Source: Candidatus Thorarchaeota archaeon (lineage in GTDB: Archaea > Asgardarchaeota > Thorarchaeia > Thorarchaeales > Thorarchaeaceae). Taken from it: a stretch of DNA of 64,000 nucleotides. How positions within the stretch are numbered: the stretch's first letter is position 1; every line of letters begins with the position of its first letter. The stretch is taken from assembly GCA_011364985.1 (NCBI GenBank), contig RDOC01000002.1:160001-224000 (forward strand), written 5' to 3'. Made by a program: the position numbers and the translations under genes. Under the pieces are notes generated by a model that was given only the letters and a program-made list of their open reading frames with translations, did not search any database and was not told where the DNA came from. This document shows, in pieces, positions 11,495-50,469 of this stretch.

Positions 11495-13501
11495 TCAGTC
11501 ATCATTATCAGGATAGGGGAGCCTGATCTGGCTCAGCATGGCTGAAACATCGTCATTCCAAGTGTCGTCTTCGTTGAGTATTCGTTGGTAGAATCTCCAT
11601 GAATAACTTCTGTAGGATACGACACGGTAACAAGACAAAGCCAAATCTTGTTCTGCAGCCTTCCCTGGCAATTCTATCATTATTTGGCGAGCAATTGAGG
11701 GTGGAACTCGGGCCATTATCAATGACCATCTTCCCCCTCTTGCTACAAAGACTGTAGCTGAAGGTGAATGTTTCAAAAACCCTTGGACAAATGAACAAAT
11801 CTGACCAGATCGACCCTGTGCAATCAATGCAATTGTCATATGATTTCGAAATACAGGTGTATAAGATATATCAACGACAGTCTTCTTTTTCATTTCCATA
11901 ATGGCATCAAGTAGCTCTTCTCTTGTAAGGCCAAGTTTCTGCAGGTATTCCAGTTGTTCAAACGATGCCAAATATCCAAGATTTGCTGTTGCATCAAGGC
12001 ATTTGACCCATTTTCGCTTTGGCTGATATGGTTTTTGTCCTATCCATGTACCAAATTCACTTTCGAGTTTCTTTAGAGTTTGATTTCCAAGCAATGAGTT
12101 TTGTATTCGCTTGAAAGAAACTCTCCAGCTATTTTCATGGAAGTCATAGAGATTTGCATTAGTAATGCTTGCAGACCAATCTAATGTTATGACATTGGGT
12201 CTAATTTTCTTTACCCGATCCACAGCCAAAGGTGGCATTTCCATTATCTGGATATGGGGTTCTCTGTAACTCTGTGCTGCAATACTTGCTGACCATTTCA
12301 TATGCTTGTGGGGCCATTGATGTGCTCTTGTAACATCTATCAAACCAACAAGCCCTAAAGCCTGTGGTCTTAAGTGAGTTCTAATTCTTAGACCAGACGC
12401 CAATAGAAGAAATCTGTTTTTCCAATTCTCCTGAGATTCACTAGCTTCTTTTCGGGTGATTGGTAAACTAACAACAATCTTCTTTGTTCTGTTAAGCTCA
12501 GCTGTACATTCTATTGCTTTTCGGAAAACACTTGGTGTTGTTTCTACTATTCTGAACAATGCAGGTGTCCAAGGATTCCATTCTTCGTCACGTATTGCAC
12601 TTGATGGCAAAGCCAATTGATGTCGAGAACTTCTCTGGATTATTCTAACATATGATGGAATATCCATGTCACTAAATTTTCGTATTACATATCCTAGCAA
12701 GAGTGTGTTAAGAACATCTAATGGATAGATTCTGTTGAAATAGTCCACAGGATCTTCTCGTGGAATATCCCATCTTGACACCAGTGTGAAAAATGCCATT
12801 ATCTGTTCTCTGACTATGTCTTCATAGGCTTCAGGAATCAGCTGCTGCATTGTATTTCTGGCATCTTTCCCCAAGCGCAGGTTTGGAATATGCACATCAT
12901 GAATCAGTTTGGTCAGTTGCTCCCAAGTTGGCGATTCACTTACCAAAACACTATTCATCCATTTCTTGGCTTTGATCAAGGATTTCTTAGAAGCAAAGAA
13001 CGATGAATACTCCTCAAACTCTTCTTCAAACTCAAGTGCTCCAACCTCAAAAGGGAAAATTGGATGCGCTTCAAGGACTCTAAAATCCGATTTACTCAGG
13101 ATAACAAGCCAAAGTCTGAAATCATCCACGATTCGGTGAACAAAAACAATAACATTCAATCCAGTTCTATCTATCCTGCTAAACCACCCTTTCGTTGATG
13201 GAGGGTACAATGGTTCTGGTCTATTTCCATCTACTGAATATTGTTTCTCGGTTTTGAGTATAGGATTCAATTTGATATTCAATAGCTGACTTCTCAGAAC
13301 TCTTACCGATTTACTCCCTTTGTCGATAAGAACGTCGCATTCGATTCTGAATACTTTCTCAATGTTAGCATCAATCTTCTTTTCCAGTAGAATCTGTGGA
13401 CCCGTAGTATCATAGGAAAGAAGGGCTCTTTCTGGTCTCCCCTCCACCAATACCTGTACTGGCAGACAGCTGACTTGGTGACCCAAATATCTTCTCTCCA
13501 T
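11495..13501 (-). CDS. Hypothetical protein, 668 aa; possible C-terminal HTH/AsnC-like region
   Basis: Long uninterrupted ORF; no confident family motif. Confidence 0.7.
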   Translation of the reverse strand: MERRYLGHQVSCLPVQVLVEGRPERALLSYDTTGPQILLEKKIDANIEKVFRIECDVLIDKGSKSVRVLRSQLLNIKLNPILKTEKQYSVDGNRPEPLYPPSTKGWFSRIDRTGLNVIVFVHRIVDDFRLWLVILSKSDFRVLEAHPIFPFEVGALEFEEEFEEYSSFFASKKSLIKAKKWMNSVLVSESPTWEQLTKLIHDVHIPNLRLGKDARNTMQQLIPEAYEDIVREQIMAFFTLVSRWDIPREDPVDYFNRIYPLDVLNTLLLGYVIRKFSDMDIPSYVRIIQRSSRHQLALPSSAIRDEEWNPWTPALFRIVETTPSVFRKAIECTAELNRTKKIVVSLPITRKEASESQENWKNRFLLLASGLRIRTHLRPQALGLVGLIDVTRAHQWPHKHMKWSASIAAQSYREPHIQIMEMPPLAVDRVKKIRPNVITLDWSASITNANLYDFHENSWRVSFKRIQNSLLGNQTLKKLESEFGTWIGQKPYQPKRKWVKCLDATANLGYLASFEQLEYLQKLGLTREELLDAIMEMKKKTVVDISYTPVFRNHMTIALIAQGRSGQICSFVQGFLKHSPSATVFVARGGRWSLIMARVPPSIARQIMIELPGKAAEQDLALSCYRVVSYRSYSWRFYQRILNEDDTWNDDVSAMLSQIRLPYPDNDD

Positions 13502-13665: not shown

Positions 13666-13785
13666 TTAGAAGGTCCAAGGTTCGGGATGAGGGATCTCTC
13701 CCGGATTCAGACCAAAGGTCCAAGGTTCGGGATGAGGGATCTCTCCCGGATTGCTATGACTAAACCTATCTTTGCCAATTGTCAT
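13666..13785 (-). CDS. 39-aa peptide with duplicated Pro-rich core
   Basis: MTIGKDRFSHS-NPGEIPHPEPWTF-GL-NPGEIPHPEPWTF-stop; repeat period is a multiple of 3; T-tract downstream (A run near 13572-13580). Confidence 0.5.
   Translation of the reverse strand: MTIGKDRFSHSNPGEIPHPEPWTFGLNPGEIPHPEPWTF
13670..13752. repeat. Direct repeat, 2 x 38 bp identical, 45-bp period
   Basis: aaggtccaaggttcgggatgagggatctctcccggatt at 13670-13707 and 13715-13752. Confidence 0.97.
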
Positions 13786-15800: not shown

Positions 15801-16200
15801 TTAAAAATCATGAATTTCTGCACCTTCTTCTTCAAGCGTATCTTCTATCTCTTTCAATATCTCATTCCTATTCTCAGAACTTATCTTGCGCCCTATCAGA
15901 TTGAATCTAACCTCGTTCTCAATGTCTTCTGAGGATAAGATTTGGGTCTTAACCTCCTCAGAGGGTAAAGATAGTAATGTCAATTCCACAAAGTCTGTTT
16001 CATTCTCCACATTGCACAAATGGACGATGACATCTAGCCTTCTTCTACGCCTACCTTCCTCAAGACGAACACCGACAAATCGCAGTTCAGGGATCTCTTC
16101 TGGAACTACCTCTTCACCCTCCATTTGAATCCAATCAGACTCTGCTGACTCTAGCTTCTCGATAATGCCCCATTATGGCACTCTGAATCCTGGAATACTC
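15801..16200 (-). pseudogene. C-terminal remnant of the TnpB-associated partner protein
   Basis: VHLCNVENETDFVELTLLSLPSEEVK matches VHLCNVEDDTDFTELVLLSLSSELVK in 24597-25034; 5' limit approximate. Confidence 0.7.
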
Positions 16201-16310
16201 AAATAGAATGTGTACCAATCGCAGGCTCACAAGAGATTCTGCGTCGATGTTAACATCTTATCTCCGGTTGGATTCAATATCCACAAGCTGGCTACACTCT
16301 GCTAAGAGCT

Positions 16311-16979
16311 CTCTATGTTGCAATTGGTCGTTTGAAGAACATCAGAAATACAGCGCACAAGGGTAATTTCAAGGGAAGAAAGTTCAGGGGCATGATACAC
16401 TCATGGGCCTTTGCTAGGATTACTGAAAGCCTTAGGCATGGGCTTACTCAGCTTGGGTGGAAGGCTGATGGAAAAAACTCTCGTTTTCGAGTTGTGCCTG
16501 AAATTTAGACTTCTATCATGTACTGGAAGTGTGGAGCTAAGGGAATACGACCCAAACAGAGCTACTTCAGATGCCTTTCGTGTGGTCGCCAGACAAATGC
16601 TGATAGGAATGGAGCCATCAATATCGCCGGACGCCTTATTACGCTTACAAAGTCATTGCACTCTGTGAGAGGACTAGGTAAGTGGGCCGACTCTGTCCAG
16701 AGGACAGGGAAGCGTTCACGACTGAAAGCCCGAAAGAAGAAGCCTTCTCAAGGGAAGTCCTTACTCTCAAGAATGGAACAATCATCAAGTTCCAGAGAGT
16801 CCGCGGCTGTTCACTTTGTTCAATCGGACCTTACCAGTTTCAGCGATGACACTGAAAAGAGTGATCATGACCCCGCCATGGAAAGAACTGTGGAAAAGCT
16901 CTCTGTTGCTGGAAGTGATGCAGCCAGAATTCGACAGGAGAAAGAAGTCAGGTCTTCAGGAGGGATCCCATCCCAATGA
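16311..16979 (+). pseudogene. tnpB: TnpB pseudogene, C-terminal half
   Basis: LYVAIGRLKNIR..HSWAFARIT..VPEI*TSIMYWKC..NADRNGAINIA; collinear with 27029-28705; internal TAG. Confidence 0.88.
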
Positions 16980-17130
16980 AGGTTGACAATGCTCTTGCTA
17001 ATTCTTGTATTTCAAATGAAATACGAAGAGGTGGTGACACTGGCAGGAGAAGGGCGGAACACAGAGGTTTCTTACAGTTGTGTTCACTCACAAGAAATTG
17101 TAAGAAATAGGTTGTAATACAGGTGCTTTA
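16980..17130 (+). ncRNA. Putative TnpB omega/re-RNA 3' scaffold plus guide, copy 1 (RNA probably begins inside the ORF)
   Basis: Conserved blocks ggttgacaatgctcttgctaat, ggcggaacacagaggtttc, gttcactcacaa; terminal hairpin tttcttacagtt/aattgtaagaaa. Confidence 0.65.
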
Positions 17131-17169
17131 GTACCCTAGTACGAAACAACACCGTGGTGGATTGTTACG

Positions 17170-22141: not shown

Positions 22142-22172
22142 TGGCGCTCCCGCCGGAACTTAAACCCGGGTC
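22142..22172 (-). repeat. Degenerate tRNA-Asp-like 3' end (att-like relic)
   Basis: Minus strand GACCCGGGTTTAAGTTCCGGCGGGAGCGCCA vs GACCCGGGTTCGAATCCCGGCGGGGGCGCCA (24548-24578): 26/31 identical. Confidence 0.8.
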
Positions 22173-23677: not shown

Positions 23678-24470
23678 ACCACCACTTCACGGTCCATTTC
23701 TTTTGCACAAACTCAATCTCATCTCGGAATCGGTGAGATTTAACTTTTGGGTCAATGCATCTCTTTGCTAAGTAGACATGGATTTGAATATTTATCGTAT
23801 TAAGAAACTCAAATTCGAAGAATAATTCAGGAAGATTCACGAACTTCTTCGTAATCGATTTTCAGAACTGGCACCCCTTGTTTCTTTACAACAGTCATAA
23901 GACCTTCATCATCCAGAGTATAGCCTCTTTCACTTAGGAAATTAAAACCTTCGCATTCCCCTCCATTAGAATATAGTATTCATTGAACCATTCCATGAAA
24001 TCTTGACGAAACAGTACGGTAAAGAGCTTGACACGTTCCCTGAAGATCTTCGCCCTCACTCCACCTTCAAGTATAGCAATGAAGAAGGCAAGCAGACTTG
24101 AAGTAAGAAATCCTGTTATTAAATTCCCAATAACGCCTACAAAGTAGTTCATTTTCGGATGGATACTGCATGAACCAAATCAAAGCCATTATACTTGCAC
24201 ACAATACAAAACTCGTTGTTTTGTGAACTCGATGACCAAATCACGTTCATGAGTTGTGAATTCAAACCCCTCTGGTATTTCGGGACCATTTTCTTTATTC
24301 ATTTTCAAATCATGCCCAAGTAGTGAAACCTTCTAGTGTCACATTGTCATGAGAACTGATAAACCTGCACTCAGATAGAGTGACCTTCAAGAAACACTGT
24401 GAAACCGATTTTGCCATTGTTCAAGAACGACAACTTTAATAGAAAACCAAAAGTGGAGCAGTCGAACCAT

Positions 24471-24578
24471 GCCCCTGTAGTGTAGTACGGTCAGTACTCC
24501 AGATGACCTGAAGTATCCGGAATAGCATTCAAGACTGTCACTCTTGAGACCCGGGTTCGAATCCCGGCGGGGGCGCCA
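24471..24578 (+). tRNA. tRNA-Asp(GTC) with 30-nt D-loop intron (24493-24522)
   Basis: GCCCCTG/CGGGGGC, G73, CCA; CAAGA-CT-GTC-AC-TCTTG; relaxed BHB ACGG-TCA / CCGG-AAT restores CGGTCTAGCAT. Confidence 0.95.
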
Positions 24579-24596: not shown

Positions 24597-26769
24597 TCAG
24601 GAATAGTCTATTCTTACTCCCCTCTTCTCAAGTGCATCCATGATCTCCTTCAAAATCTCATCATTTTCATCAGAAGTCACCCTACGACCCCTTAGATTGC
24701 ATCGGACTTCTCGTTCAATGTAATCAGCCGATATTGATTGAATCTTCACAAGCTCAGACGAGAGCGATAACAGAACCAATTCCGTAAAGTCAGTATCATC
24801 CTCCACATTGCACAAGTGAACGACAACATTCAACATTCTTCCACGGATAGATTCTTCAATGCGGGCACTGACAGAAAGCGTGGTAGCTTCCAACTCAACA
24901 AGATGGTTCAGCAGATGCCAGTTCTTGGCAAGCCAAGCTGCGCTTCTTCCAGAGGAAGTGGGAGAGGGTACAGAAATGTATTGCGTGAAGTGGACTTTGT
25001 CTTCTATTCGCTCATTCATCAAATGGATTTTCAAAACGTATTGATTCCGAAGGAACGATTTTCTTCAAAATATGCTTAGGACCTTTAGCTGGAACCATCG
25101 TGATTGCAATTCTGGGCACTGCTTTGCTAGAATCTGTGTTTTCAAATGTCAGCGTCGCCCATTTTTCATAGAATTCGCCCATCACTAGCGAATCAGCAAG
25201 TTGACTAACGAGTTGATCAAAGACCTTCTTTGTGATTTCATAATCTTGAGATATATCAAGTGTCACAACGCCCTTCCAGAGGGTTTTCAGTTCTAGAACA
25301 TCACCAGCAAGTGCATTGTATTCCGCAAGTATCGATTGTTCATATGCATCTAATTGGCCAAGATGAGAATGCGGAGGAATAGAATCCAGCATTGCTTTCC
25401 ATTCAGCTTCTGTAAGACTTTCTTTCCATGAATAGAATTCAGGAGCATAAACATTCGATTCTTTGGTTCGAGGTTTCCTACCGTAGAGGTTGAAACGAAA
25501 CCCTGCTTTTGTCTTCACCTCAAGTATCATAATTGGGGTCCAGATGTACTGATTCGCAGCTTTCTTGTTACGAACAAAGAGAACAAGATCAATCCTACCA
25601 GCTCCTTGAGGTCCAGTAACAGGGACTTCTGCAAGATACTGCATTCCAGACGGCTCCTGTAGAAGGTCGTCACCAGCAAAGACGGCTGCTTTCAGAGAAC
25701 TAGGATGTGAAAATCCTGAGAGCAGAACTCTATGCCAGTCGTTTCCTTCTCGTTGTGTCTTTTTGCTAACTTCTTCAATGAAATTGGAAATATCGGCATC
25801 TCCAACTATATCATTCTCAATATGAGCAAGGATAACCTGTCCTCTTTTCCCAGTGGAGTCATCCTTTTCCATCTCAGCTTTTGCCTTGCCCATGAGAAAA
25901 TCAACCCCTGGATTCTCAGTTGGACCCTCTATCTGCTCACTGATTCTCTTGGCACTGCCAATTCTTTGACTAAACCGAGTTCTAATCTCAAGCACAAGTC
26001 TACGAAGCTCTTGGTCTGCATCCGGATAGAAGTTTTTTCGACCAATCCTTCCTCCCGTGTAAATCCAATCAAGGAAAGGAATCAATCTATGAGTCAAAAG
26101 TCGAATGTATCTCTGACTCTCCTTTCGTGGAACACCATGGATGAAGCATTGACGACACAACTCAACTAGATGAGCACGAATCATATCACCGAAATCAAGA
26201 GCGGGAAGCGTGGGATGGGTGAGTAGTATCCGAGGTTTCTTGGAGTTGCCTGGATATCCAGCTTTTAGATGAACCTTGGCATCTTCTAAGGTTGACAATT
26301 CATCAGCTACACGCTTTGGGATAACCTTCGTGCGGCCGTCTGAGAATTGCCTAATTTCATAGAGTTGTGGGTTTGGAAAGGGATATCTAGTGACCAGCAG
26401 ATCACGTAGCGTAGAGCCTGCAGAATTGAGTAGGGCATTAAGGGGACCGACAGTCCCCTCTCTCCAGCTGTATACCCGTTTGAACTCCTTGTTACCATAT
26501 CTTGCGGTACTATACCAAAGCATTTTGAGATATAATCTTCTCAATACTGGTTCTATACCTTGTACTGAAGAGAAGTCATGAGAGCCCTTAGCTTTGGATG
26601 ATTTCCACTCCTTGCGTGCGATTTTCCAGTTCTTGCTAATCTGCTGATAGAACCTGTACGTCTTTGCATTCTTCCGTTTTGATGCCAATCTTACAAGGGC
26701 TGACAATCCAGCATAAATCGCATCTGCCAAGACCACATTTGGTCTGAATTCCTGAATTTTCCGCCCCAA
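24597..26769 (-). pseudogene. Large PD-(D/E)XK-domain protein, frameshifted (ORFs 25012-26769 and 24597-25034) and probably internally deleted
   Basis: AGRIDLVLF..ILEVKTK motif; 4-bp duplication tcat-tcat at 25012-25019 whose removal joins ENPFDE to RIEDKVHF. Confidence 0.7.
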
Positions 26770-27028
26770 ATAGACTCCTCGATACTTAGAATCCCTTTTT
26801 ATTTATAAGTAATTCTTCCCTATTTGGAAATCTCCATTACTAATTTAAAGGTCGCATATGGCTTCTTTAAAAGAATAAAGGCCTATTAGATTATTTTGTT
26901 TAATAAGTTTATATTGTTTGTCACAGAAATATGTACGAGTTCAAAGGCTCTACTCTTGACAATAAAGGGAGTGAACTCAACTGACTCAGAAATGGGTCAG
27001 AAGTTTATATTGTATTGGGCGAAAATCA

Positions 27029-28705
27029 ATGGCTCGGTTTCAAGGAACTACAATCAGCGTCAAGGTCCCGATAAACTGGGAAGCAATGACGATGAAATCT
27101 AAGCAGAGGCTTAGACAGATTGTAGGAAGGGACACGAGGGTGATTCGTGCATTTCTCGGGATAATCGAACAACATGAAAACGACTTGCTTGCTGGTCGCA
27201 ATAAGCATCGAATTCATGACGGGAAGCTAGACAAGCTTACCATGACCGCACTCAGAGTCAAGGCTGGCTATGCTCAAAGAGCCAGTGTTCCTCATGACTT
27301 CAAGGCTCGCTTCCCACGCATCTCCCAAAACGAGATAACCGAGTGTCGACAGACTGCTGTTGCTCTCTACAAGAGCTACCTGAAACTTAGAGCTAAAAGA
27401 GGCTTGAATGTTTCACGACCAGCGTCAATCAATCAAAGCCGACGGATACCAAGATGGGTCTTTTCGCAGAGATTCAAACTTCTTGAGAGAAGTACTGCTG
27501 CTTCACGATGGTGGCTTGATATTAGGGACTCTCTTGACTCAGTACAAGAGGGACGAACATTTCATGACCGACTGAATATTCCCCTAAAGATGTCACCTTT
27601 CCACTTCAACCAGATTAAACGAGGCGATGTGAAGGCAGTTCAAATCTTTACTGACCGCTTTGGGAAGTGGTGGGCAACCATTGCGGTTAGGATTTTTACA
27701 GACCTACCTCCCAAAGAGGATCTTCCGATAGGAATCCTTGGAATTGACTTGGGTATTGAAAAGGCAGCCTGCTCGACACTGATTACACCGAAGAAAACAA
27801 GAGAAACAAGGTACTTTGTCCAGCGGCAGAAAGTCAAGGTCATCAAGAAGTACGACAGACTTGTTGCTGACCTTCAGAGGACGATGCAGAATCACAAAAG
27901 TAACGGACTTCCATATGACAAGATGGCGAAAAAGCTCCGGCAGATGAAAGCCAAGAGAGAGAATGTTGCTAAAGAGTACGACCGTGTTCTTCTTCGCCAG
28001 ATTCTCGACTACATCTTAGATCTATCGGAGAAGTATACACTCTATGTTGCCATTGGTCGCCTGAAGAATATACGACTACGTGCTAAACGAGGAAACTACA
28101 AGGGGCGAAGGTTCAGAGCAATGATTCATTCATGGGCCTTTGCTCGAATAACAGATGGCCTCAAACATGGCCTCGCTCAGCAGGGGTGGAAGGTCGATGG
28201 AAAGGATACCTGCTTTAGAGCTGTTCCAGAGGCATGGACTTCTATCATGTGCTGGAAATGCGGGAGCAAGGGAACACGTCCCAAACAGAATTACTTCCAT
28301 TGTACCTCCTGTGGACACAAGACCAATGCTGACAGAAATGGTAGTATCAACATTGCAGCACGTATGCTCATGCTCACAAAGTCACTGCACTCTGTGAGAG
28401 GACTAGGTATGTGGACTAGGGCTGTAGATAGGGCTCGACGTGCGCGACCGAAAGCCCGAAAGAAGAAGTCTTCTCAAGGGAAGTCCTTACTCTCCTCTAA
28501 GGATTCAACATCAAATCTTGGAGAGTCCGCGGCTGTTCACTTTGTCCAGTCGGACTTTGCTGGCTTCAGTGATGAAACAAGCGAGAGTGATGATGACCCC
28601 GTCGTGGCAAATACTGTGAAAGCTCTCTCTGTCATTGAGGGTGATGACTCAATAGCAATACAGGAGAAAGAAGCCAGGTCTTCAGGAGGGATTCCATCCC
28701 GATGA
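27029..28705 (+). CDS. tnpB: TnpB-family RNA-guided endonuclease with rearranged RuvC-II
   Basis: LGIDLG (RuvC-I), VAIGRL (Gly at canonical Glu), VPEAWTSIMCWKCG, CTSCG Zn finger, NADRNGSINIA (RuvC-III). Confidence 0.92.
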   Translation: MARFQGTTISVKVPINWEAMTMKSKQRLRQIVGRDTRVIRAFLGIIEQHENDLLAGRNKHRIHDGKLDKLTMTALRVKAGYAQRASVPHDFKARFPRISQNEITECRQTAVALYKSYLKLRAKRGLNVSRPASINQSRRIPRWVFSQRFKLLERSTAASRWWLDIRDSLDSVQEGRTFHDRLNIPLKMSPFHFNQIKRGDVKAVQIFTDRFGKWWATIAVRIFTDLPPKEDLPIGILGIDLGIEKAACSTLITPKKTRETRYFVQRQKVKVIKKYDRLVADLQRTMQNHKSNGLPYDKMAKKLRQMKAKRENVAKEYDRVLLRQILDYILDLSEKYTLYVAIGRLKNIRLRAKRGNYKGRRFRAMIHSWAFARITDGLKHGLAQQGWKVDGKDTCFRAVPEAWTSIMCWKCGSKGTRPKQNYFHCTSCGHKTNADRNGSINIAARMLMLTKSLHSVRGLGMWTRAVDRARRARPKARKKKSSQGKSLLSSKDSTSNLGESAAVHFVQSDFAGFSDETSESDDDPVVANTVKALSVIEGDDSIAIQEKEARSSGGIPSR

Positions 28706-28850
28706 TGGTTGACAATGCTCTTGCTAATCTAGGAATCCATTGGATTCCAAGAGGTGGCGACACTGGCAAGAGAGGGGCGGAACACAGAGGTTTCATGCAG
28801 TTGTGGTTCACTCACAATTTTAAAAGCAGGTCATACACTACAGGGGCTCG
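28706..28850 (+). ncRNA. Putative TnpB omega/re-RNA 3' scaffold plus guide, copy 2
   Basis: Same conserved blocks as 16980-17111; the variable hairpin differs in sequence but still pairs (ggaatcca-t-tggattcc vs gtatttca-aa-tgaaatac). Confidence 0.7.
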
Positions 28851-29207
28851 GATTGCTCGGCCTCCAGCATTTCTCCGAACTTGTAGCACCAGCCCTAGTT
28901 TCACAACCGGTTTTGTAGAAACTGAAGATTTTTCTCGATACAGAACTGCTTCCTGTCAGTCTGTTAGCCAACTAGCGCAATGCTTTTTACCGAAGAAGCT
29001 AGTATGTACACTGGTTCACCCAAACCTGCCTAGATGATATTCTATCTTTCGTTTTATGGAAAGGTTTTTATCAAGACAATTTGCCGTCCGAATAGCCCAG
29101 GCAGAACTGCTTCCCACTCTAGCATGGCCAAGCGTTACATTCCATAGAAGCCATTATACTACATGACTATATGTCTGGCATGTCACGGTGGCCTGTGATG
29201 ACGATAG

Positions 29208-29284
29208 GGGCTCGTGGCGCAGCTAGGTAGCGCAGCAGGCTTTTAACCTGATGGCCGCGGGTTCGAATCCCGCCGAGCCCGCCA
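29208..29284 (+). tRNA. tRNA-Lys(TTT), intronless
   Basis: GGGCTCG/CGAGCCC, CAGG-CT-TTT-AA-CCTG, GGTTCGAATCC, CCA. Confidence 0.95.
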
Positions 29285-45714: not shown

Positions 45715-47514
45715 ATGCCAAGGACGGGAATTCTTAACGAACGCTTGATGCTTTACATTCTTGCTGGAGTTGTTGGTCTTGCTTCAGGCCTGACAGCAGT
45801 ATTGTTCAGGTGGCTCGTTTTGGGTGTAGGTACATTATTTGCTACAATTCCTGTGTTATTTGGTCCGATTGGGTGGATTATTGCACCTATTGTTGGAGGA
45901 TTTGTTGTTGCAATAATTGTAGTCAAGTACGCGCCGGAAGCCAAAGGTCACGGAGTTCCTGAGGTCATGGTTTCTTACTCAACGCAAGGCGGCAAAATGC
46001 GTGTACGTGTCCCTCTTCTGAAGAGCATTGCTTCTGCATTCAGCATTGGATCCGGAGGATCTTGTGGCCGTGAGGGTCCTATTGCTCAAATCGGAGCAGG
46101 ACTAGGTTCTACAATTGCTGGCATGGCAAATATGAATCGAAGGCAAACAAAGACACTGCTTGTTTGTGGACTAGCATCTGGAGTGTCGGCCACATTCAAT
46201 GCCCCTCTTGGAGGTATGATATTCGGAATAGAGGTAATTGCAGGCGGTATTATCGGTTTTTCAATTATACCCGTTATTCTTTCTTGTGTAGTAGCTACTG
46301 CTGTTTCATTGTCAATTCTTGGTGCAGAAGTTTCCTTTCAGGCACCCTATTTTTCTTTGCAGACTCCCCTTGAGCTTGTGTTTTACCTAATACTTGGTCT
46401 TTTACTTGGCATTGGTAGTGTCCTATGGGCTCGTGGGTTCTATAAGATAGAAGACGTACTTGATAAACTCCCGGTTTCCAAGTATTTGCTACCTGCAATT
46501 GGCGGCTTTCTCACCGGAGTTCTTCTTCTTCTCACCATCTATCTTGAAAGCGTCTTTGACTATAGCGGTCTATTCCGACCTGAAGAACCATACTTCCCAG
46601 CAATAGGAGGCATAGGATATGCTTTTACCGATGCAGTTCTTATTGGAACTGTCACTCTTGTTGCTCTTCTCGCTTTTGGCTTTCTTAAAGCCTTGGCCAC
46701 ATCATTTACACTTGGCTCGGGTGGATCAGGTGGCATCTTTGCACCGACTCTATCCATTGGCGCTGCCTTCGGTGGTGCTTTTGGTCTAGTCTTTTCGTTC
46801 CTTTTTCCATGGGCTATCACTCAACCTATGGCTTTCGCTCTTGTAGGAATGGCTGCGCTCTTTGCAGGTTCTGGCAGAGCTCCTATTACTTGCATTGTCA
46901 TTATCATGGAGATGACCAATGATTATTCCCTTATCCTCCCGCTTATGATTTCCGTTTCAGCTTCCTTTCTTGTCGCCTCTCTCCTTGATGAAGAGAGCAT
47001 ATACACACTAAAGCTCACTCGAAGAGGTATAATCATCCGGCAGGGGACTCATGTTGGAACTCTCAAAGCTATTGGAGTCGAAGAAGTAATGACTAAGAAC
47101 CCAACAATTCTACGACCTTCAATGTCTAAGCAGGATGTTCTGAACATTATCGACAAGACTCAGCACACCAAATACCCCGTTGTTGATATGGATGGAAATG
47201 TAATTGGAACACTAATTACTGAAGATTTGTATCACGAGGTAGAAGAAAGCACCGAACAAACCGTGCAACAATTGATGAATCCGAACTTTCTGCATCTTGC
47301 ACCGTCTTCTACTATGGACAGTGCCTTGAGTGCAATGATGGAAAGAAATGAGGGCCATGCTGTGATAGTCAATCCAAGTGCCCCAGCAAAAATGCTCGGT
47401 TTTGTTACCAAGGCAGACGTTCTTCGCGCCTATGAATTGGCAATCTTTAGACTTCAGCAACAAGGTTATGACATAGATGAAATTGGACCCGCTGAGATTA
47501 TTGATGTGGCATAA
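45715..47514 (+). CDS. CLC chloride channel/antiporter with CBS pair
   Basis: GHGVPE, GREGP, GGIFAP, EMT, IY; C-terminal CBS. Confidence 0.95.
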   Translation: MPRTGILNERLMLYILAGVVGLASGLTAVLFRWLVLGVGTLFATIPVLFGPIGWIIAPIVGGFVVAIIVVKYAPEAKGHGVPEVMVSYSTQGGKMRVRVPLLKSIASAFSIGSGGSCGREGPIAQIGAGLGSTIAGMANMNRRQTKTLLVCGLASGVSATFNAPLGGMIFGIEVIAGGIIGFSIIPVILSCVVATAVSLSILGAEVSFQAPYFSLQTPLELVFYLILGLLLGIGSVLWARGFYKIEDVLDKLPVSKYLLPAIGGFLTGVLLLLTIYLESVFDYSGLFRPEEPYFPAIGGIGYAFTDAVLIGTVTLVALLAFGFLKALATSFTLGSGGSGGIFAPTLSIGAAFGGAFGLVFSFLFPWAITQPMAFALVGMAALFAGSGRAPITCIVIIMEMTNDYSLILPLMISVSASFLVASLLDEESIYTLKLTRRGIIIRQGTHVGTLKAIGVEEVMTKNPTILRPSMSKQDVLNIIDKTQHTKYPVVDMDGNVIGTLITEDLYHEVEESTEQTVQQLMNPNFLHLAPSSTMDSALSAMMERNEGHAVIVNPSAPAKMLGFVTKADVLRAYELAIFRLQQQGYDIDEIGPAEIIDVA

Positions 47515-47887
47515 TCGGTAGAACAAACACATCTCAAAAGAAGACCAAGCCTTAGCGTTCTTACATGAAATGTGAATTGAATCTGACACAGTCTTCATGA
47601 GAAAGACCCCTCGCAATTCAACGATTCATGCTGGTTTGTTCTTAGCCTTCTTGATGTCCTGCTCTTTCGATGTAAACTTTGCTAGATTTCTGATGAACTT
47701 TCAAGCCATCTTTGGGATCATGGTAACGATTTCTTTTTCTTTGGTAAAGCGTTTGATACTTCAATTTTGAGTCCATTATCTCGATAATTTACCAAGTCTC
47801 AATTCACTAAATGTTTCAAGCAATTCTCTGCGAGGATTCCATTTCTTACGACCCCATTCTGGTATATTATTATCTTCAAGTGAAAAA

Positions 47888-48118
47888 CGGTCTAAGACCT
47901 TTTTCCACAGGGGAAATTCCAAATCGGGTTGTAGAGAGTCCATCGTTGGTCATACTGCTCAGACGAGTCTTCTCAGTTTCAGTGATAAATCTGGAATGAG
48001 TGGTAATGACCCAATCGTGGAAAGAACTATGGAAAAACTCTTTGTGACTGAGAGTGATGCCTCAGCAGCAGTATAGGAGAAGGAAGCCGGATTTGCAGGA
48101 GGGATTGCATCCCGATGA
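47888..48118 (+). pseudogene. tnpB: Extreme C-terminal remnant of a third tnpB copy
   Basis: RESIVGHTAQTSLLSFSDKSGMSGNDPIVERTMEKL..*EKEAGFAGGIASR aligns to the tails of both other copies. Confidence 0.75.
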
Positions 48119-48258
48119 GTGTGGACAATGCCTTCGCCATTTCTCAGATAATACTGGGTGTTGCGTTGACGCTCGTCTAAGGAAGGGGAGGACACAGAAG
48201 TTTCGATAGTCGGAGTTCACTCGACTTGTAGAAACAGGCCAGGTCTTGGTAAGAAATC
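48119..48258 (+). ncRNA. Putative omega/re-RNA scaffold plus guide, copy 3 (orphan)
   Basis: gacaatgc, acacaga, gtttc..gttcactc..gaaacagg blocks as in copies 1 and 2. Confidence 0.55.
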
Positions 48259-48307
48259 AATGAGAGAATTCAGTTGAACTACTGACTGTATATTGACAGA
48301 AGGAAAA

Positions 48308-48450
48308 TGGCGCTGAGGGAGAGATTTTCAATTCTCGTAGAAACCATGAGAATCTTTGAACTCTCGAGTGCATAGCACACTGGATGTTTGCTGAACTGCT
48401 ACAAGCAATCAATAGCAATCCAGCGCCATACCAGGCTTGGCTACCTCAGC
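48308..48450 (-). tRNA. tRNA-Ser(GCT) with introns at 37/38 (48386-48412) and 59/60 (48325-48354)
   Basis: GCTGAGG/CCTCAGC, G73, CCA, long variable arm; BHBs TTGC/GCAA and TTCA/TGAA. Confidence 0.95.
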
Positions 48451-48666
48451 ATAGATAATCTGTTGGAGAACTCATTTCTCTCATAAAGATTGTGACCAAG
48501 TATCTGGAGGTTCTAGGCCCCTCTCAAGTGGAGTTCATCCTCTTCAGGGATTAAACATATCAAATTCGAACTGGACGATCCAGTTGATCGGGGTCTTTAT
48601 CTACATTGCTTTAGATAGACTTATTCTAGCACCAAGTTAAAGAAAGAGGTGCATTAATGACGACCA

Positions 48667-50469
48667 TCACATGATATCTATCGTTTCAAGAGGATCGATT
48701 GCTTCTACTGGTTCTCCCGCTTCCTGCAATCTGACAATAGCAATTTGATAAGCTCTAAGTACGTCGGCCTTGGTGACAAAGCCAAGCATCACATTAGGAA
48801 CTCGTGGATCCACAACTACTGCATGCCCTTCGTTTCTTTCAAGCATTCCACGTAGAACACTGTCCATCGTGCAGTCAGGACCAATATGGAGAAAATCGGT
48901 ACTCATCAAGTCCTTGACTTGGTACTGCTTGTTCTCGTCTTCATTCTCTGGAAACAGATCTTCTGTTATGAGGCAACCTACAACAACCCCTGTCTTATCT
49001 ACAACAGGGAATTTTGTATGCTGCGTCTTATCTACAATTTTCAGAACCTCTGCTGTGGTCATATCAGGTGATAAAACGGTGGGGTTCTTAGTCATTACCT
49101 GATCCACTCTTATTTCTCGTAGGGCACTGATATAATGCCCTCTTCTTACATTAATGCCTCTACGGGATAGTTTCAACGTGTACAGACTCTCTCTTTCAAT
49201 AAGAGAGGATACAAGAAAGGAGGCTGAAACCGCTATCATGAGGGGAAGAATCAGAGAGTAGTCGTTGGTCATCTCCATGATAATGACAATGCAAGTAATA
49301 GGAGCTCTGCCAGAACCTGCAAAGAGCGCAGCCATTCCTACCAATGTATATGCCATTGGCTCAGGAACTACGGTGGGAAAGAAGGTGTAGAAAAGGAGCC
49401 CGAAAGAGCCTCCTAACGATGCACCGATAAATAATGTAGGTGCAAAGACCCCACCTGATCCACCTGAACCAAGCGTAGCTGATGTCGCAAAGGCCTTTGC
49501 AATCCCGAATGCAGCCAATGCTACTAGTGACACAGTTCCTAGGAGACTTGCGTCTATGAATGCATATCCGACCCCCATTATTGCAGGGAAGTACGGTTCT
49601 CCAGGCTTAAACGCACCAACATATCCAACGGAATTCTCAATCATCAGGATGATTACTGCAAGTATTCCTACAACGAAGCCACCAATTGCTGGAATGGCAA
49701 GCCTAGGTCCTCTTAGCTTCTCAAACAAGTCCTCAACCTTGTAGAATCCGCGAGTCCAGATCACGCTGGCGACTCCAAGAAGTAATCCTAACATGAAGTA
49801 GAGAACCAATTCTAAGTAATTACTCATGACGAAGAGAGGTGCTTGGAACGAGGGCTGTGAGCCAAGAATGGTATCAACCACTGCAGTGGAAATAACCGAT
49901 GATATAATCACTGGGATGATGGAGAAACCTACAAGTCCACCAGCTATCACTTCGATGCCAAACAAGGTACCTCCAAGTGGAGTGTTGAACGTGGCCGCAA
50001 TACCCGATGAAACTCCACAAACCACAAGAGTTTTTGTTGTTCTAGTGTCACTCTTCAGTTTCATTGCAATGAAAGAGCCAACTCCGCCGCCAATTTGGGC
50101 GATCGGTCCTTCTCGTCCGCAGGATCCTCCAGATCCGATACAAATAGCAGAAGCAAGGCTCTTTAGGAGGGGAACCCTAAACCGAATTCTTCCTCCCCGT
50201 CGAGCATAGGCATCCATAATCTCTGGCACGCCATGCCCCCTTGCTTCTGGGGCATAGTTCACCACTATGAAGGCAACCAAGATGCCACCGAATGCTGGTA
50301 TCAGAAGCCATCCAAGCAAACCAATCGTTTGAGGCACAATTGCGAACAGAATACTGATTCCTAGAATTAACATTCTGAATCCGATTGCTACAAAACCAGA
50401 AACAACCCCAACGATTGCTCCCAAAATATAGACCTTCGACTGATAGCTAGTTATTGACCTCTGCTGCAT
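48667..50469 (-). CDS. CLC chloride channel/antiporter with CBS pair (paralog of 45715-47514)
   Basis: GHGVPE, GREGP, GGVFAP; long identical peptide stretches with the paralog. Confidence 0.95.
   Translation of the reverse strand: MQQRSITSYQSKVYILGAIVGVVSGFVAIGFRMLILGISILFAIVPQTIGLLGWLLIPAFGGILVAFIVVNYAPEARGHGVPEIMDAYARRGGRIRFRVPLLKSLASAICIGSGGSCGREGPIAQIGGGVGSFIAMKLKSDTRTTKTLVVCGVSSGIAATFNTPLGGTLFGIEVIAGGLVGFSIIPVIISSVISTAVVDTILGSQPSFQAPLFVMSNYLELVLYFMLGLLLGVASVIWTRGFYKVEDLFEKLRGPRLAIPAIGGFVVGILAVIILMIENSVGYVGAFKPGEPYFPAIMGVGYAFIDASLLGTVSLVALAAFGIAKAFATSATLGSGGSGGVFAPTLFIGASLGGSFGLLFYTFFPTVVPEPMAYTLVGMAALFAGSGRAPITCIVIIMEMTNDYSLILPLMIAVSASFLVSSLIERESLYTLKLSRRGINVRRGHYISALREIRVDQVMTKNPTVLSPDMTTAEVLKIVDKTQHTKFPVVDKTGVVVGCLITEDLFPENEDENKQYQVKDLMSTDFLHIGPDCTMDSVLRGMLERNEGHAVVVDPRVPNVMLGFVTKADVLRAYQIAIVRLQEAGEPVEAIDPLETIDIM

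Follow-up and report, generated by a model that had tools for sequence, protein, structure and literature searches.

Casposons duplicate their target on insertion and prefer tRNA genes. In Type V-K CAST, Cas12k is inactive and acts together with TnsB/TnsC/TniQ; insertion occurs at a distance, so that the tRNA stays whole. IS200/IS605 and IS607 elements are not known to make 9-12-bp direct repeats. A rearranged RuvC site, with Gly at RuvC-II and a later Glu, is active in TvTnpB and Fanzors (PMC10530073). In Caldiarchaeum subterraneum, a tRNA-Thr(GGU) gene split by an insertion has been restored with an extra intron, proposed as a measure against invasion (Sugahara et al. 2012, PMC3293823). For the aCas1-TnpB loci, the account of Altae-Tran et al. 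2023 (PMC10691335) suggests as guide the variable stretch before the GTTCACTCA motif. The main text of that paper has no hit for tRNA, and its section on aCas1-TnpB does not describe target duplications, a target motif or spare tRNAs. A literature search for TnpB together with Thorarchaeota, aCas1 or tRNA introns, covering sources outside subscription journals, found neither tRNA-derived guides nor resistant spare copies.

The window, the whole stretch of 64,000 nucleotides analysed here, belongs to an assembly of 1.7 Mb (74% complete), and from its sequence the host is a Thorarchaeota genome. The window harbours a tRNA-Asp 3′ remnant (minus strand), two unknown ORFs, an intact tRNA-Asp (plus strand) and a broken giant gene (minus strand), followed by tnpB, the omega-RNA, a 14-mer complementary to tRNA-Asp, and tRNA-Lys (Table 1). 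The tRNA-Lys(TTT) gene, which precedes the large RNA-polymerase-subunit ORFs, was used as host landmark for locating empty sites in relatives. The tRNA-Asp 3′ remnant may be older than the element, since element-free relatives have such remnants too. No CRISPR array was detected within the window. An intergenic, perfect 38-nt direct repeat with a spacing of 45 nt is present at 13670-13752.

Table 1. Features of the window, with positions counted from its first letter.
Feature	Position	Strand	Remarks
Copy 1, centrally deleted element	15801..17134	+	right flank (17115-17134): host promoter of the following gene
Degenerate tRNA-Asp 3′ remnant, ancestral orientation	22142..22172	-	84% identity over 31 nt
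Intact tRNA-Asp(GTC) with promoter	24435..24578	+	gene 24471-24578; inverted relative to the ancestral gene
Rare A17 of tRNA-Asp(GTC)	24487	+	breaks the target motif
D-loop intron of tRNA-Asp(GTC)	24493-24522	+	30 nt
Broken aCas1-type giant gene	24597..26769	-	Cas1-fold N-terminus and PD-(D/E)XK-like motif retained
tnpB promoter region	26969..27009	+	inverted GTTCACTC box of the scaffold, direct copy of the right-end motif, then TATA box
tnpB, 558 aa	27029..28705	+	rearranged RuvC, C4 zinc finger; Pfam Cas12f1-like_TNB
Conserved 3′ core of omega-RNA scaffold and right end	28700..28833	+	GTTCACTCA motif, terminal RGGTYA
Terminal T of the element and predicted guide	28834..28851	+	nt 14 to 1 of tRNA-Asp in antisense, plus 4 nt of an ancestral leader
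tRNA-Lys(TTT)	29208..29284	+	precedes large RNA-polymerase-subunit ORFs
Copy 3, decayed tnpB tail and scaffold	47923..48261	+	flank without significant tRNA match
tRNA-Ser(GCT), two introns	48308-48450	-	not detected by ARAGORN or Rfam

The giant gene of relatives, with a product of about 1400-1900 aa, is the sole recurrent partner of tnpB (45/69 loci). The window version is 57% identical to the 1697-aa protein of L001 over residues 3-587 and then jumps from residue 630 to 1607, so that about 975 central residues are deleted and the C-terminal 90 aa are retained. A 4-nt frameshift near 25012 corresponds to a 4-nt duplication that is absent in a contig of run X1, and may reflect a mistake in the assembly or an allelic difference. 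The structural model of the first 900 aa of the family protein (pLDDT 85.7) matched many Cas1 entries, with residues 2-253 reaching Z 13.0 and rmsd 4.5 over 195 aligned residues. The model also matches casposase (Z 11.4) and a RecA-like fold, and a PD-(D/E)XK-like motif was read from the sequence between the Cas1-fold and RecA-like parts. Searches with the giant protein returned nothing in Pfam or ESM Atlas, and Foldseek returned the RecA-like part only. A Cas1-fold giant protein, as modelled, together with the GTTCACTCA motif places the element in the catalogued Asgard aCas1-TnpB type (Cas1H-Asgard-1/-2) described by Altae-Tran et al. 2023. The aCas1 protein is predicted to be the integrase that mobilises it. 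In line with the Asgard host, the homolog search recovered TnpB homologs almost exclusively from Thorarchaeota.

Giant-gene paralogs paired with a different TnpB-like protein of 721 aa are present at C21:46806-54828 and C17:130500-139200 of this genome. At the C21 site, an ORF read by eye as similar to IS607-type serine recombinases overlaps the end of the paralog. A divergent subfamily (C16:48803-55581, L035, L061, L064) has a complete tRNA-Gly on one side and the 3′ half of a tRNA-Gly on the other, in an att-like arrangement. In this subfamily the giant-gene stop codon abuts the anticodon loop, and the RGGTYA end is lacking.

The tnpB gene of the window is intact. Its catalytic set comprises D240 at RuvC-I, G343 (replacing E) at RuvC-II, the alternative E401 ahead of the zinc finger and D435 at RuvC-III, all four invariant in 22 homologs, and the structural model of the protein matches Cas12f/TnpB structures. 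A reading of this TnpB as dead, suggested by G343, was dropped because E401 is invariant. By analogy with the rearranged RuvC sites described above, it is probably active as a nuclease. The omega-RNA is predicted to be expressed; in two metatranscriptomes, related copies were found as short contigs only, which speaks neither for nor against expression.

The core of the omega-RNA scaffold was defined by an alignment of 37 copies, covarying stems and the repeats D2-D6, and its conservation reaches upstream into the tnpB tail. The GTTCACTCA motif, at 28808-28816 downstream of tnpB, is conserved in the 37 copies. The stretch before the motif pairs with the stretch after it in a stem with compensatory changes in all six pairs (77.5% paired); none of 500 shuffles scored as high, and the stem beats every slid control. 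Therefore the stretch before GTTCACTCA belongs to the scaffold, and a guide at that position was rejected. Conservation stops at RGGTYA (28828-28833), which corrects the scaffold end that the initial annotation had placed at '..AGG'. In 67 of the 74 distinct guides a T or G follows, and this base behaves as part of the element end, so that the omega-RNA is predicted to end in GGTCA-T (28833/4). The segment beyond is variable among the aligned copies, and the 37-copy alignment rules out that the 14-mer is invariant scaffold. Forty of 45 elements also have a right-end-like motif 31-40 nt before the tnpB start codon, which might be an integrase binding site, serve autoregulation or form the left end of a tnpB-only unit.

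The 14-mer at 28834-28847 had been described as antisense to the 5′ end of tRNA-Asp, and it is the exact reverse complement of nt 1-14 of tRNA-Asp(GTC) (24471-24484). This gene is its sole other occurrence in the 1.7-Mb genome, with a chance expectation of 0.0004 hits in the window and 0.01 in the genome. The reported stop at nt 1 holds for the resident gene; the conserved segment itself, however, comprises 18 nt, not 14. These 18 nt are identical in the window, L001 and L002 and diverge beyond, the TnpBs behind them differ by 23%, and the flanks further out are unrelated. The final 4 nt match the tRNA-Asp leader of G070, a genome of the same genus without the element, which possesses an uninterrupted tRNA-Asp with the motif and 17 of the 18 target bases. 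The match to the resident gene ends at nt 1 because the resident leader differs.

The segment 28834..28851 lies 375 bp before tRNA-Lys, and in element-free relatives the tRNA-Asp 5′ end is found there at 335-385 bp. In element-free Thorarchaeota, tRNA-Asp is encoded on the minus strand, the same orientation as the 14-mer. These comparisons indicate that the predicted guide is the right flank of the element and occupies the position of the ancestral tRNA-Asp 5′ end. Of the two origins considered before, a guide for homing to tRNA genes or a leftover of insertion, both appear to describe one process, in which the DNA flanking the insertion doubles as TnpB guide.

Across the family, host sequence resumes directly after RGGTYA, as in the interrupted ORF of L043. 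In 10 of 64 loci (0.9 expected), at least the first 10 nt of the guide recur as a direct repeat ahead of the element, on the same strand. The repeats, target duplications of 9-12 bp, would fit a Cas1-type integrase. Among the 11 loci with repeats of at least 9 nt, T is found at -1 in nine and a purine at -4 in nine. Before the left copies, position -1 favours T, position -2 favours A or C, and position -4 a purine; because other sites are loose at -2, the motif, derived from about 20 sites, is written R-N-N-T. It represents the insertion preference, and its equation with the TnpB TAM draws on analogy to IS605/IS607. The left junctions have no fixed shared sequence, and an inverted right-end box is internal, before tnpB. 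In the window copy, no target duplication, flanking repeat or matching left half is visible.

Enrichment for tRNA matches among the guides of homologous loci, suggested earlier as a check, was found. When the 74 distinct guides were compared with a library of 83 tRNAs taken from three other genomes, twelve had a match of at least 13 nt, one mismatch being allowed; none of the 696 controls (400 random, 296 shuffled) did. The tRNAs matched include those for Asp, Arg, Tyr, His, Ala and Ser; both strands and many positions are hit, and such guides are scattered over a quick tree of TnpB. About 84% of the guides are not derived from tRNAs; tRNA targeting is a bias, not a rule. One guide family matches the RNase P RNA gene, a gene read by eye. 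An element apparently lies in this gene with an 11-bp duplication (L072:4750-4820 and 11814-12030; L077, L082), and a second copy without the target motif is located 190 bp downstream.

All components of the pattern come together in L098, where the insertion divides tRNA-Arg at its anticodon and is accompanied by a 12-bp duplication; the spare tRNA-Arg there is inverted and has a recoded anticodon stem. A decayed copy in the window's genome (C17:204546-210080) is flanked by the antisense 5′ half of tRNA-Arg(CCG). Its guide type is as in L098, and both nearby tRNA-Arg genes possess a recoded, mismatching anticodon stem.

The initial annotation extended tRNA targeting to all three copies in the window, which fails for copy 1 and finds no support for copy 3. 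The flank of copy 1, proposed as a degenerate Asp guide, is a conserved promoter that eight element-free relatives also have, and its score against tRNAs is no better than chance; its identity as host promoter excludes the proposal. For copy 3, the tRNA-Ser(GCT) gene does exist, but aligning the flank with it requires an indel and draws on scaffold bases, and the score does not rise above chance. Copy 3 and tRNA-Ser lie between two paralogous chloride-channel (CLC-CBS) genes in convergent orientation (45715-50469).

The tRNA-Asp gene at 24471-24578 is the only intact one found in the 74%-complete assembly. If an active nuclease were directed at the sole tRNA-Asp gene, lethality would be expected. 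A17 turns the motif GGACT into GTACT (position -4, G to T), and all other common tRNA-Asp alleles have a purine at -4. All four genomes that carry the window's guide and have the gene assembled show A17, as do 3 of about 55 other genomes, one of these being an inverted cargo copy; G024 and G029 have A17 without the element. Given the shared cargo and a single TnpB clade (support 89), the association of A17 with the guide counts as one or two independent events, not four; a Fisher test of it overstates the association, as related genomes are not independent, and was set aside. The inverted intact tRNA-Asp is cargo in the four g12 genomes G027, G028, G043 and G046, with promoter and leader as in the window. 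Nine guide families have a long match to an intact nearby copy, and in seven of them this copy lacks R-N-N-T, four times through T at -4. On these grounds, the spare tRNA-Asp is predicted to escape cutting, and probably does.

Introns inside the target are present in L092/L132, L109 and L046, where the intron breaks the target after 3-8 nt, and in the Asp-27 loci G056, G059 and G067. The D-loop intron of the window cannot have the protective effect against the window's own guide that had been considered, lying 8 nt outside target and motif. The guide that it does interrupt is another one, against nt 27 to 11, which is present in relatives and retained at the tRNA-Asp locus in G056, G059, G067 and G065. 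Protection against that guide would hold for G056, G059, G067 and G046, and fails for the scaffold-less scar in G065. In L133 and L187, the left remnants break off 11 nt into this nt 27-11 target. Older scars of omega-RNA 3′ ends, carrying the nt 27-11 guide as a second tRNA-Asp guide, are nested behind the current guide at L001:9811-9950 and L002:1874-1990, and form a small array-like stack.

We consider it fairly probable that insertion into tRNA-Asp was followed by TnpB cutting of uninterrupted alleles, while the spare resists. The right end of an aCas1-TnpB element would join directly after R-N-N-T, and the host DNA that follows, which sequence comparison supports as the guide, would direct TnpB. 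The ancestor of the window copy would have entered tRNA-Asp on the antisense strand, between nt 15 and nt 14. As an insertion into an essential gene, it would survive only with a second intact copy, in the window presumably the one now inverted at the other end of the element. TnpB would cut uninterrupted tRNA-Asp alleles with motif and target, so that the element-bearing allele is favoured. The spare would evade through the G to T change at -4 brought by A17, aided by leader mismatches at guide positions 15-16. The D-loop intron would probably be the answer to the older guide against nt 27 to 11, and the spare copies would have been under selection for resistance.

It is unlikely, in our estimate, that the guide is a passive scar consisting of tRNA remains only, with TnpB inert on tRNA genes and A17, introns and recoded stems neutral or directed against other integrating elements. 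Flank DNA at the ancestral position and the broken aCas1 of the window agree with such a scar, as do the frequent introns of the lineage and the nature of tRNA-Asp as a hotspot with many 3′ remnants, in element-free relatives as well. The same holds for the perfect self-target tolerated in L105 (9597-11960), where an intact TnpB faces a 26-nt match in tRNA-Asp with intact motif, together with a duplication of about 95 nt from the 3′ part of the tRNA. This locus clearly contradicts the resistance model, and L056, where the motif is retained too, does so in part. Against a scar stand the 18 nt that are identical next to TnpBs diverged by 23% amid unrelated flanks. Remnants also often end at about 15-19 nt, which is the guide length, tnpB is intact with invariant catalytic residues, and the motif is missing in seven of the nine spare copies, all of which likewise argue against a scar.

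The window's guide is found in 4 other genomes of 86, at the same locus and in two genera, and in L002 and G053 a native tRNA-Asp 5′ remnant is separate from the guide, so the history was more complex than a single insertion. Both observations, the consistent pairing of TnpB with aCas1 and the tolerated L105 target would be accounted for if TnpB bound without lethal cutting and a fixed guide steered the Cas1-type integrase to tRNA-Asp in new hosts, as in CAST. We regard this as quite improbable, as close TnpB relatives carry many unrelated guides that are their own flanks, including interrupted genes and promoters, the duplication begins at the first guide base instead of at a fixed distance from the target, and the catalytic residues are retained. 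Repression of tRNA-Asp transcription by the RNP or the RNA alone, or pairing with the tRNA, in the manner of TldR, would suit the perfect 14-nt complementarity to the 5′ end of the resident gene, but is highly improbable given that TldR-type proteins are nuclease-dead while the window TnpB retains D, E and D, that family guides match both tRNA strands at many positions, and that leader divergence explains the stop at nt 1.

Cutting of uninterrupted alleles could be part of a broader system, which we put forward tentatively and with some doubt. Natural RNA-guided cleave-and-rescue elements, mobilised by Cas1 and with an active TnpB, would act against essential tRNA and RNase P RNA genes and supply resistant replacements (single-base TAM loss, recoded stems, BHB introns within the target), so that one element after another would drive tRNA intron gain and allele turnover. 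This would offer a testable selective cause for a long-standing puzzle, the gain of archaeal tRNA introns at odd positions. If true, the family would provide a natural cleave-and-rescue element and a transposon combining Cas1 and TnpB. The element family itself is already catalogued; the family statistics, the target motif, the hypothesis of one-base escape and the refutation of copy 1 are added here. An uncharacterised Asgard element becomes testable through a guide boundary that differs from the guess published in the account of aCas1-TnpB and through the predicted TAM R-N-N-T, and sensitive and resistant tRNA-Asp alleles that are one base apart are available as a matched pair.

Similar to the aCas1-TnpB loci as described in the relevant section of Altae-Tran et al. 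2023 (PMC10691335), the element has an Asgard host, a TnpB beside a Cas1-fold protein, GTTCACTCA and, family-wide, flanking repeats; the guide proposed there precedes GTTCACTCA, whereas here it follows RGGTYA. No genes for TnsB, TnsC or TniQ recur at the family loci, and no Y1 or serine transposase TnpA was found in the element, the giant protein being the only recurrent partner among 69 loci. Type V-K CAST homing to tRNA genes (10.1101/2021.02.06.429022) also combines a Cas12/TnpB-family protein, a short tRNA guide and a mobile element, but the catalytic residues are retained here. In TldR the RuvC is inactivated, whereas that of the window TnpB is rearranged, not lost. With casposons (PMC5137440) the element shares a Cas1-fold integrase, target duplication and tRNA-gene preference; it differs in its multidomain Cas1 of 1700 aa, its RNA-guided nuclease and insertion at many tRNA positions on either strand, and the elements contain no family B DNA polymerase (PolB) gene and no third recurrent gene. 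The tRNA-Thr(GGU) locus of Caldiarchaeum subterraneum is without an RNA-guided nuclease and supplies a tRNA fragment only, in direct orientation. IS200/IS605, IS607 and TvTnpB (Jiang et al. 2023, PMC10530073) resemble the element in the right-flank guide, the RuvC-II Gly with a later Glu and a 5′ motif by the target, although the Glu lies 58 residues from the Gly in the window TnpB and about 45 in RuvC-II-rearranged TnpBs such as TvTnpB. In contrast to IS200/IS605 and IS607, the family has 9-12-bp direct repeats and an essential target with a spare copy.
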